A DNA stretch of 64,000 bases. Origin: Patescibacteria group bacterium. Lineage in GTDB: Bacteria; Patescibacteriota; Patescibacteriia; UBA2591; JAQUPP01. The notes beneath the pieces were generated by a model that saw only the letters and a program-made list of their open reading frames with translations, was not told the DNA's origin and searched no databases. Each line of letters begins with the position of its first letter. Position 1 is the first letter of the stretch. The stretch covers positions 68,079 through 132,078 of the forward strand of contig JBAZMD010000001.1 in assembly GCA_041649955.1 (NCBI GenBank), in the 5' to 3' direction. Positions 18,644-64,000 of this stretch are shown piece by piece. The position numbers and the translations under genes were made by a program.

Positions 18644-18815
18644 ATTTACCTCATTGGGGCGAGGATTATGTCGCTAAGAAAAGTGTCTTCCGCCAAAGGG
18701 CGGATAAACTCCGGGCGAGTAGTTCGCCAGCTGGGGCGGAGAGCCCGAGAGCCAAGCGACAATTTTCCCGCTGGGAAAATTGATCGTGTCTTTTCGTGCG
18801 ACTAATCCGAACCTT
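18644..18815. ncRNA. GC-rich multi-hairpin element filling the rpsU-yqeY spacer (candidate structured RNA, class unknown)
   Basis: Closing stem ggattatgtcgc (18663-18674) with gcgactaatcc (18798-18808). Inner hairpins are ccgcc-aaag-ggcgg, gcga-gtagt-tcgc, gggc-ggaga-gccc, and a perfect 10-bp caattttccc-gct-gggaaaattg. Confidence 0.45.
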
Positions 18816-62862: not shown

Positions 62863-62892
62863 TAAAAAATAACCGCTTAAATAAACGGTTAT
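62863..62892 (-). terminator. Intrinsic terminator after tRNA-Gln
   Basis: ataaccg-tttatttaag-cggttat, followed by ttttt. Confidence 0.65.
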
Positions 62893-62896
62893 TTTT

Positions 62897-62970
62897 TGGC
62901 TGCGGGAGATGGATTCGAACCATCATAGCCAGCTCCAAAGGCTGGAGTCCTACCATTAGACGATCCCGCA
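62897..62970 (-). tRNA. tRNA-Gln (anticodon UUG), CCA encoded
   Basis: A 74-nt cloverleaf read by hand. Acceptor TGCGGGA/TCCCGCA (U1-A72), D arm GTCT-AATGGTA-GGAC, anticodon stem CCAGC/GCTGG with loop CTTTGGA, variable CTAT, T arm GATGG-TTCGAAT-CCATC, then G-CCA. Confidence 0.9.
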
Positions 62971-62979
62971 ATATATATT

Positions 62980-63234
62980 TTATATTATTTTATTTTTAAG
63001 TATTCTTTTACCTTTCGCGGTCTTATAAAATCTTTCCATTCTATAAGCTTCATATTTATCAGGGTAATTTTCAAAATAAATTAACTTTATCGGCAACCTA
63101 CTACGAGTAGAAAAAACTTTTTTACTTTTATGTTCTATTAATCTCTTCTGTAAATTAGAAGTACAGCCTATATATAAATTATCATCTTTTAGACTTCTTA
63201 AAACATAGATTGTATGCATTGTTTTATTTACCAT
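62980..63234 (-). CDS. Small GIY-YIG nuclease-family protein
   Basis: 84 aa with IYVLRSLKDDNLYIGCTSNLQKRLIEHKS...YENYPDKYEAYRMERFYK. The start could also be the Met at 63219. The start codon lies inside a duplicated tRNA D-loop sequence. Confidence 0.8.
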   Translation of the reverse strand: MVNKTMHTIYVLRSLKDDNLYIGCTSNLQKRLIEHKSKKVFSTRSRLPIKLIYFENYPDKYEAYRMERFYKTAKGKRILKNKII

Positions 63235-63318
63235 TAGCCTCGCCCGTAGGCAGTAGCCTACTGGCTACGGCCGTCTCACCCGTAGGTTACGACCGAGGGA
63301 GGGACGATCCCGCAATAT
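63229..63318 (-). repeat. Duplicated 5' fragment of tRNA-Gln split by a 66-nt GC-rich insert
   Basis: ATATTGCGGGATCGTC (63303-63318) equals 62959-62974, and TAATGGTA (63229-63236) equals 62951-62958. Between them lies 63237-63302, GC-rich with hairpin gtagcc-agta-ggctac and two copies of cccgtagg. Confidence 0.8.
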
Positions 63319-63325
63319 TCAAATT

Positions 63326-63353
63326 ATTATAACAAATTTTAAAAATTTGGCAA
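63326..63353 (-). promoter_or_regulatory. Promoter feeding the pseudo-tRNA 5' fragment, the GIY-YIG ORF and tRNA-Gln
   Basis: TTGCCAaatttttaaaatttgtTATAATaatttgaatATTGCGGGATCGTC. Confidence 0.6.
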
Positions 63354-63354
63354 A

Positions 63355-64000
63355 TTATTTACCTCGCCATTTCCAAAAATATTTAATCCCGCTGGCAATA
63401 TGAATCCATGTAATTTTAGATAATAAAGTCGGACTAGTGCTGCGTTCCGCAGAAAGCCGCTGATGGAAATGATACATATGAGCTTCGGGAAAATAATAAA
63501 CTTTTTTGCCGAATTTCCAAATCCGCCGCGCCAAATCAGTGTCTTCAAAATAAAGAAAAAATCTTTCATCAAAATAATTAATTTTTTCCAAAACTTCTTT
63601 TTTAATCATTAAGGCCGCGCCCAAAAGCCAATCCACTTCTTTTGTTTCATTGTGTTGCCAATCTGACATTAAATATCTGCCTAATTTCTTTTTCAAAAAA
63701 GGAAGTTTTCCTAAAAAAGTTCGGCGGAGAATCGGCATATACCAACAAGGAAATTGACAGCTGGAATACTGGATTGTTCCATTGGGATTTAATAGTTTGG
63801 GTCCGACCATCGCCGCTTCATTATTTTCTTCTAAAAATTTATAAAGTTTTTCCACTGAATCTTTTAAAACAATCACGTCCGGATTTAAAATTAAAACATA
63901 TTTTCCCTGAGCCAATTTAATCCCCTGATTATTCGCCCGGGCAAAACCATAATTCTTATTATTTAAAATAACCCTAAGTTTTAAAGACGGCATATTAAGT
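63355..64000 (-). CDS. Family 2 glycosyltransferase (5' end outside the window)
   Basis: NKNYGFARANNQGIKLAQGKYVLILNPDV...FFLYFEDTDLARR. The frame stays open upstream of the first Met to the window edge. Confidence 0.8.
   Translation of the reverse strand, partial: LNMPSLKLRVILNNKNYGFARANNQGIKLAQGKYVLILNPDVIVLKDSVEKLYKFLEENNEAAMVGPKLLNPNGTIQYSSCQFPCWYMPILRRTFLGKLPFLKKKLGRYLMSDWQHNETKEVDWLLGAALMIKKEVLEKINYFDERFFLYFEDTDLARRIWKFGKKVYYFPEAHMYHFHQRLSAERSTSPTLLSKITWIHIASGIKYFWKWRGK

Follow-up and report, generated by a model that had tools for sequence, protein, structure and literature searches.

A probable selfish GIY-YIG nuclease cassette within the 5' end of a tRNA-Gln gene of Patescibacteria

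The DNA described here is a 64-kb stretch (64,000 nucleotides, nt) of contig JBAZMD010000001.1 from a Patescibacteria group bacterium, referred to below as the window. Protein homologues likewise assign it to the Patescibacteria, or candidate phyla radiation. It has a G+C content of 35% and contains a single transfer RNA (tRNA) gene, a tRNA-Gln(UUG). Between this gene and the upstream glycosyltransferase gene lie a small open reading frame (ORF) for a GIY-YIG nuclease and a second, partial copy of the 5' end of the tRNA, called the stub, which is interrupted by a GC-rich palindromic insert. The features are collected in Table 1. A preliminary description, made from these letters alone, had seen in the arrangement the footprint of a mobile element that restores its tRNA target. 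We have compared the locus with those of other genomes and metagenome contigs (designated by L and a number), and consider it probable that the region is a selfish GIY-YIG cassette which is nested in the 5' end of tRNA-Gln(UUG), restores the tRNA it targets and uses the tRNA promoter for its expression.

Read along the minus strand, the locus begins with TTGCCA-16 nt-TATAAT (63326-63353), the top promoter-like site of the region (11/12, with a TG extension), just where it had first been placed; a second promoter of comparable quality was sought in the same region and none was found. Seven nt, not nine as originally counted, separate the -10 hexamer from the 16-mer ATATTGCGGGATCGTC (63318-63303), an exact repeat of 62974-62959 that comprises four nt of leader and nt 1-12 of the tRNA. 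The insert which follows (63237-63302) is indeed 66 nt long and GC-rich; it is not, as had been thought, a single palindrome, being a 40-nt element with a nested 26-nt copy. Its RNA fold, proposed earlier as a check, gives -33.1 kcal/mol (z = -3.1). We considered the hairpin as a terminator or attenuator and rejected this, since there is no T run and termination at this point would silence the tRNA. Beyond the insert comes TAATGGTA, a copy of tRNA nt 13-20, and then the ORF, a 9-nt spacer, the intact tRNA-Gln(UUG) and a terminator-like hairpin, all as initially reported, so that the cassette sits between the stub and a regenerated tRNA. Rfam searches (the region at E values up to 10, the whole window at gathering thresholds) returned the tRNA and nothing else, neither ribozyme nor leader nor known small RNA. 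No other copy of the palindrome was found in the 64-kb window (insert halves with up to 3 mismatches, arms with 2 mismatches).

Table 1. Features of the tRNA-Gln locus (minus strand, 63353-62864) and in-frame palindromes on other contigs
Feature	Position	Strand	Evidence or remarks
Promoter TTGCCA-16 nt-TATAAT, TG extension	63326..63353	minus	11/12 match; homologous to native tRNA-Gln promoter of the empty site
Stub part 1: ATAT leader + tRNA-Gln nt 1-12 (TGCGGGATCGTC)	63303..63318	minus	direct repeat; empty-site comparison
Composite GC-rich palindromic element, 66 nt	63237..63302	minus	40-nt element CCTCGGCCGTAGCCAGTAGGCTACTGCCTACGGGCGAGG + flanking C, broken by nested copy
Nested 26-nt variant element (CCTCGGTCGTAACCTACGGGTGAGAC)	63273..63298 (borders ambiguous by a few nt)	minus	alignment with L001
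Stub part 2: TAATGGTA = tRNA nt 13-20	63229..63236	minus	exact direct repeat
GIY-YIG nuclease ORF, 84 aa (ATG 63234) or 79 aa (ATG 63219)	62980..63234	minus	bare catalytic domain
Intact regenerated tRNA-Gln(UUG), CCA encoded	62897..62970	minus	ARAGORN; Rfam tRNA 63 bits
Terminator-like hairpin, 16-nt arms, then T run	62864..62897	minus	inverted repeat; kept in L001 and L205
In-frame palindromes, housekeeping genes	L086 3338-3363; L092 2992-3017; L099 1606-1631; L157 1634-1659; L189 4413-4438; L196 2422-2447; L168 9794-9831		

The comparison with a cassette-free tRNA-Gln locus, which the preliminary description had recommended, was provided by a homologue (94% identical) of the upstream glycosyltransferase. 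It led to contig L205, on which the glycosyltransferase gene and a promoter are followed directly by tRNA-Gln(UUG), with no stub, hairpin or ORF. The promoters of the window and L205 are homologous (TGTTATAAT...GAAT), the tRNA genes are 100% identical and the terminator is the same; relative to this empty allele, the window has 344 nt extra between the native promoter and the tRNA body. Since the promoter of L205 stands directly before an identical tRNA, the stub of the window is the original promoter-proximal 5' end of the tRNA gene, displaced as had been surmised. With L001, which is filled like the window, the cassette shows the presence/absence polymorphism of homing endonuclease genes, the tRNA being identical in all three. 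A more distant relative, L206 (66% identity), also has the glycosyltransferase gene followed by tRNA-Gln without a cassette, and its tRNA differs in the D arm. The contigs L203 and L204, from the empty-site relative, stop exactly within the tRNA promoter (last 40 nt), and these ends may be assembly breaks arising from filled and empty alleles in the sample.

L001, whose nuclease is 92% identical to that of the window, carries the 40-nt palindrome alone at the same place. The nested 26-nt copy sits in the left arm of the window palindrome; since it is absent from L001 its insertion is recent, and the same variant is found nested in L028 and L012. L001 in turn possesses a 27-nt hairpin (2866-2893) at the 3' end of the glycosyltransferase gene that is missing in the window and alters the C-terminus of the protein. 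From the nested copy and this indel it follows that copies of the palindrome are gained or lost on a short time scale. At the place of the L001 indel the window (63361-63370) has only GGCGAGG, the right end of the palindrome, which could be a remnant or microhomology.

A scan of one genome per species yielded 80 loci, the closest set of which comprises 52 genomic loci (including the look-ups L001 and L002), or 53 with the window. Some 50 Patescibacteria genomes at species level, together with dozens of metagenome contigs, have the design at tRNA-Gln (UUG, CUG) and tRNA-Glu genes. Within the closest set, 43 of the 52 loci lie 0-40 nt upstream of tRNA-Gln (UUG or CUG) and six upstream of tRNA-Glu (UUC or CUC), without exception on the strand of the tRNA; a tRNA-Ser version is present in metagenome contigs. 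More distant nuclease lineages occur at tRNA-Phe, tRNA-Tyr and tRNA-Asn with the same layout and other GC-rich hairpins in the stub, and GIY-YIG genes without a tRNA neighbour had no flanking repeat. In a neighbour-joining tree of the proteins most of the Glu-linked members cluster together and the UUG- and CUG-linked ones are intermixed, which indicates that the cassette has changed tRNA species a few times and has moved among isoacceptor genes often. The same structure was recovered in independent assemblies (NCBI, ENA, JGI, Logan). A relative of the nuclease is also found in records labelled Gammaproteobacteria, Woesearchaeota or Hadarchaeota (L003, L007, L047, L052 and L082, the first four with the tRNA-Gln cassette); these are probably mis-binned or mislabelled Patescibacteria contigs.

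As in the window, a 5' piece of the local tRNA lies upstream of the ORF, split by the palindrome CCTCGGCCGTAG...CTAYGGGCGAGG, at 49 of the 53 loci. The palindrome is in forward orientation between nt 12 and 13 in 40 of these and inverted in nine, where it follows nt 21 or falls inside acceptor nt 4-7; the 3' end of the stub varies among relatives from nt 13 to nt 40. The acceptor 7-mer of the stub equals that of its own tRNA in at least 23 of 39 independent loci (19 different 7-mers), a value not approached in 10,000 permutations (maximum 9), and the arrangement is therefore not due to chance.

The ORF is equally tied to the tRNA at its other end. In most loci it terminates between 21 nt inside the tRNA and 13 nt before it, and 25 of 50 ORFs have their stop codon within the tRNA (the D-loop TAA in 18 Gln loci, TAG in five Glu loci). 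Homologues often end in CGIV or SGIV and some begin ...RARLMV. CGIV plus the stop codon (TGC GGG ATC GTC TAA) is tRNA-Gln nt 1-15 in frame, and ARLMV corresponds to the last part of the GC-rich insert joined to CTAATGGTA, again in frame; these translated tRNA and insert ends indicate that the layout is conserved well beyond this genome. That the nuclease is co-transcribed with the tRNA, as had been proposed, is strongly implied by ORFs ending close to or inside the tRNA, there being no comparable second promoter.

The predicted protein matches Pfam GIY-YIG (PF01541) with 55 bits (cut-off 22.6) over residues 6-76. The catalytic residues of the superfamily are in place: Y10, Y21, G23, R31, H35 and E67 are invariant in 18 sequences, and the spacing of Y10/Y21/R31/H35 matches that of Y6/Y17/R27/H31 in I-TevI. 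With 79-84 amino acids (aa) it consists of the catalytic domain only, and the DNA-binding module of I-TevI and SegB is absent. The first reading correctly recognized a tRNA copy in TAATGGTA and placed the start codon at its ATG; this ATG is in frame here and often out of frame at other loci. Homologues begin M(H/Y)xxYVL, corresponding to MHTIYVL at ATG 63219 (79 aa), and judging from their alignment the ATG within TAATGGTA is unlikely to be the conserved start. The ratio of nonsynonymous to synonymous substitution rates (dN/dS) is 0.23 relative to L001 and 0.07-0.23 among other pairs; by this measure the ORF is under purifying selection.

Among proteins of solved structure, BH0048 and EF2693 of UPF0213 (1zg2, E 2.5e-9; 1ywl, E 1.5e-8) are nearest in sequence, followed by SLX1. 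Foldseek analysis of a predicted model (predicted local distance difference test, pLDDT, 93.8) ranked 1zg2 (BH0048) and SLX1 chains first, with TM-scores of 0.57-0.71 for UPF0213/SLX1 (0.64-0.71 for SLX1), 0.51 for I-TevI and 0.49 for UvrC. On sequence and modelled fold the predicted nuclease is a member of the UPF0213/SLX1 branch, not of that of I-TevI or SegB. The NCBIfam group I intron endonuclease model TIGR01453 gave 24 bits (cut-off 56). A tblastn search of phage records gave identities of only ca. 35%, to one unannotated uncultured phage and to Rhizobium-phage GIY-YIG genes, and T4 SegB was not among the matches. A SegB-like identity was considered and is ruled out by the weak phage matches, the sub-threshold TIGR01453 score and the lower I-TevI fold score. 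An exact-protein look-up returned no record. The wider family has 3,824 representatives (50% clustering, E up to 1e-10), a few of them with translated hairpin or tRNA ends.

The insert is not peculiar to the cassette but belongs to a dispersed family of palindromic elements. A palindrome scan of metagenome contigs gave at least 120 stretches, and 130 sampled copies were classified. Among the copies listed, 43 are in tRNA-Gln/Glu stubs (in 33 cases a GIY-YIG ORF is no more than 60 nt away), eight more adjoin GIY-YIG genes (tandem copies, tRNA-Ser stubs), and 79 are in unrelated contexts. Viral contigs contained no matches, which leaves a phage origin unsupported. A C is present on both flanks in 129 of the 130 listed copies, and an insertion therefore adds the length of the core plus 1 nt; no target consensus was seen beyond the flanking C. 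When 76 dispersed copies were examined, 42 of the 51 that add a multiple of 3 nt were inside ORFs of at least 150 aa, compared with none of the 25 others (Fisher p = 7e-13). The apparent hosts, from flanking protein sequence, are RpoC, DnaG, FtsK, UvrA (two orthologues, same site), RecJ and a Clp ATPase. The in-frame palindromes add 9-18 residues, for example LGRSPTGEA or ASPVGLRPR; when compared with solved structures the element in UvrA is a 9-residue gap, and that in RpoC falls within a variable region with a larger gap. On this evidence the insert is a member of a family of small dispersed palindromes, tolerated in coding sequence if the frame is kept, and frame-preserving insertion in conserved protein genes is what defines intragenic palindromic elements. 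The stem is nearly invariant across cassettes with proteins 55-70% identical and saturated synonymous divergence (dS). The most GC-rich stretch of the window (18685-18779, 0.72) lies elsewhere and has no Rfam match at gathering thresholds.

Both decay and multiplication of the cassette are evident. Stub-hairpin units stand directly before the tRNA in L145 and L152, tandem units occur in L089, and in L100 and L138 the order is stub-hairpin-ORF-stub-hairpin-tRNA. In the metagenome contigs L128 and L130 the ORF is deleted down to its first and last codons. The preliminary description would have taken a stub in GIY-YIG-free relatives as evidence against its reading. Stub and hairpin do occur without the gene in L128, L130, L145 and L152; the closest GIY-YIG-free relative, L205, has no stub, and L128 and L130 at least are decayed cassettes rather than a refutation, because those terminal codons are retained. 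Extra full-length or near full-length copies of tRNA-Gln riddled with palindromes, in the D arm (12/13) and the T loop (TTC^GA), are found in L012 (2849-2960), L037 (2840-3010), L040 (2840-2990) and L047 (2740-2900); in L047 the intact tRNA is upstream of the ORF and the riddled copy downstream. Presence and absence at one locus, the occupation of several tRNA genes, the ORF-deleted remnants and the tandem copies bear out the mobile behaviour originally suggested and point to a selfish element.

Several individual loci may be recorded here. In L108 (300-560) a resident tRNA-Gln (5' TGCGGGA..., 3' ...TCCCGCA) is seemingly split by a segment that holds an intact tRNA-Gln. The splitting of a resident gene by a complete foreign tRNA was considered as a general origin and rejected, since about 46 of 50 loci have no downstream 3' remnant; it agrees only with exceptional loci such as L108, L012 and L037. 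L091 (4245-4403), as well as L166, has four tandem 39-nt palindromes in one tRNA-Gln stub with a single C between each, and L022 has two copies of the palindrome where the near-identical L025 has one. The sister nuclease genes of L013 and L014 (ca. 2440-2500) are accompanied by the same palindrome variant, in one case forward at nt 12/13 and in the other inverted at nt 6/7, which suggests local re-insertion of the palindrome.

The probable selfish cassette would function as follows. A single transcript from the tRNA promoter would contain stub, hairpin, ORF and tRNA; the nuclease would be translated from what was formerly the 5' leader of the tRNA, and tRNA maturation would part the two products. 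Spread would depend upon nuclease-induced breaks in cassette-free tRNA genes and repair from a cassette-bearing copy. Such repair would keep the recipient's own nt 1-12 in the stub, and fits the match between stub and local tRNA. The duplicated 5' segment would render the insertion harmless and at the same time grant the element a strong promoter and an essential neighbour. The interruption of the stub is probably functional, because different nuclease lineages hold different hairpins in the same place. The hairpin might be the cognate structured DNA site of the nuclease, might block re-cleavage of the stub, or might split the flanking direct repeat in such a way that the cassette is not deleted by recombination.

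A number of observations weigh against this explanation. The empty site could reflect precise loss instead of the ancestral state. Stub and adjacent tRNA differ at 2-4 positions in L013, L022, L043 and L005, which is not predicted by simple duplication in situ, and the mismatches of the first three fit the break-repair model poorly. A protein of ca. 80 aa that lacks a DNA-binding domain and has structure-specific nucleases (UPF0213, SLX1) as its nearest relatives is difficult to reconcile with a long, sequence-specific homing site. Any target within the tRNA would persist in the regenerated copy, leaving the escape from self-cleavage unexplained. Lastly, cleavage by RNase P would strip the stop codon from the nuclease message, resulting in a non-stop mRNA, in half of the relatives.

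Among characterized systems the nearest analogue is SegB of phage T4, a GIY-YIG homing endonuclease encoded in a tRNA gene cluster and recognising a 27-bp site that takes in the conserved TpsiC motif of tRNAs (PMC2330249). SegB-like genes are over-represented in the neighbourhood of phage tRNA genes, and they amplify tRNA segments (PMC13096335); SegB and SegB-like genes are inherited preferentially with the adjacent tRNA DNA and drive the duplication of tRNA-containing segments (PMC2330249; PMC13096335). In common with the cassette are the GIY-YIG catalytic domain and a free-standing gene beside tRNA genes. SegB, however, is a phage protein whose gene lies between tRNA genes and splits none, whereas the cassette encodes a cellular protein of ca. 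80 aa, is located inside a duplicated tRNA 5' end under the tRNA promoter, and has a palindrome. Islands and prophages with tyrosine integrases duplicate the 3' end of a tRNA gene, use the integrase and span kilobases. They likewise keep an intact tRNA by copying the displaced segment, with a partial repeat flanking the element; in the cassette it is the 5' end which is duplicated, only an 80-aa nuclease is encoded, and the promoter is taken over.

The first alternative to the selfish cassette begins with the palindrome, which would be the primary mobile element, the GIY-YIG protein being its putative trans-acting nuclease. By analogy with repetitive extragenic palindromic (REP) sequences and REP-associated tyrosine transposases (RAYT), the two would form an autonomous/non-autonomous pair, with a master copy in the dead tRNA stub and offspring in frame in essential Patescibacteria genes. 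This overlaps the explanation given above, and we regard it as possible though doubtful. It would account for the 51 of 130 listed copies found in a tRNA stub or by a GIY-YIG ORF, with 79 dispersed; for the near-invariance of the stem across such diverged proteins; for the other hairpins of other nuclease lineages; for the variation between close relatives (the nested window copy, the 27-nt indel of L001); for the same variant at another position and in opposite orientation in L013/L014; and for the four tandem copies of L091. The predicted fold is, moreover, nearest SLX1, a branched-DNA nuclease. Against it, no other copy is present in the 64-kb window, the stub may be no more than a place where insertion is tolerated, or the element may have been passed down with the cassette, and to our knowledge GIY-YIG-driven transposition is not known in bacteria.

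The likeness to REP/RAYT systems, intragenic REPs and Rickettsia palindromic elements is that all are short, dispersed, GC-rich palindromes, occurring in frame in housekeeping or repair genes (PMC3733652; PMC10969869). The frame-preserving palindrome resembles the intragenic REPs described in PMC3733652; the Rickettsia elements are similar in form and placement. As in REP/RAYT systems one copy of the palindrome is beside a candidate mobilising enzyme. Here the adjacent ORF is GIY-YIG and not a Y1 (HUH) transposase, and there is no RAYT in the locus, so that only the dispersed palindromes correspond. The GTAG motif is inside the stem instead of being an unpaired end tag, an invariant C...C borders the element, and the density of copies is low, with one site in this 64-kb window.

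A second possibility is that of a domesticated host operon, in which a cellular enzyme, for example of repair, is co-expressed with tRNA-Gln/Glu, and the stub and hairpin are a vertically inherited leader or regulatory structure. The purifying selection on the ORF and the retention of the arrangement across many lineages agree with this, as does the cellular nature of the nearest families, UPF0213 (YhbQ-like) and the SLX1 domain, which are closest by sequence (E ca. 1e-9) and fold. SLX1 itself differs in having a RING domain and an SLX4 partner, and we know of no link between UPF0213 proteins and tRNA genes or mobility. The operon is nonetheless improbable given an empty site in a relative with a 94% identical neighbour gene, the ORF-deleted remnants, the occupation of different tRNA genes in different genomic contexts, the variable break-off of the stub (nt 13-40) and the extra, hairpin-riddled tRNA copies.

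Even less credence can be given to an intron or split tRNA at the level of RNA, in which stub, hairpin and ORF are spliced out or the hairpin is a small tRNA intron. Hairpins do occur at D-arm, T-loop and acceptor positions of tRNA-like sequences, positions that recall the non-canonical introns of archaeal tRNAs. The tRNA genes of Patescibacteria do contain group I introns, some of which bear homing endonuclease genes (PMC13011429), and these introns too are selfish insertions in tRNA genes of the same phylum that leave the tRNA functional; that paper makes no mention of GIY-YIG, tRNA-Gln or the present cassette. Group I introns employ RNA splicing and interrupt the anticodon loop, whereas the cassette involves a 5' duplication at the DNA level with junctions at nt 12-40. 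A ribozyme core and an interrupted tRNA, by which such introns are recognized, are both lacking; Rfam gave no match to a ribozyme or intron family at E values up to 10. Splicing would be superfluous for the downstream tRNA, which is whole, and truncated stubs cannot yield a tRNA. The same element is found in protein-coding genes only when it preserves the frame, and must therefore be translated there, not spliced out. Finally, duplication of an att site by an integrase-type island, or an artefact of assembly, is very improbable: integrative elements commonly duplicate part of a tRNA gene, but the insertion is only 344 nt with no integrase and copies the 5' rather than the 3' end, and the structure recurs in the independent assemblies.

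In the literature searched we found neither a GIY-YIG cassette in a duplicated tRNA 5' end nor the palindrome family described, and the design of the cassette at tRNA genes appears undescribed. It would represent a third way for an element to reside silently in an essential RNA gene, besides self-splicing introns and the 3' regeneration practised by integrases; here a 5' segment is duplicated and the tRNA promoter is captured as well. The cassette would make up a large share of the small proteins annotated as "GIY-YIG nuclease family protein" in Patescibacteria, and would explain the odd N- and C-terminal extensions of such proteins as translated hairpin and translated tRNA, respectively. It also provides a candidate mobilising enzyme for the tiny palindromes that add 9 or 18 codons to RpoC, UvrA, DnaG and FtsK in these genome-reduced bacteria. 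The system is small, ca. 340 nt and one 80-aa protein, and if a site or structure is recognised it may be of interest as a minimal nuclease.

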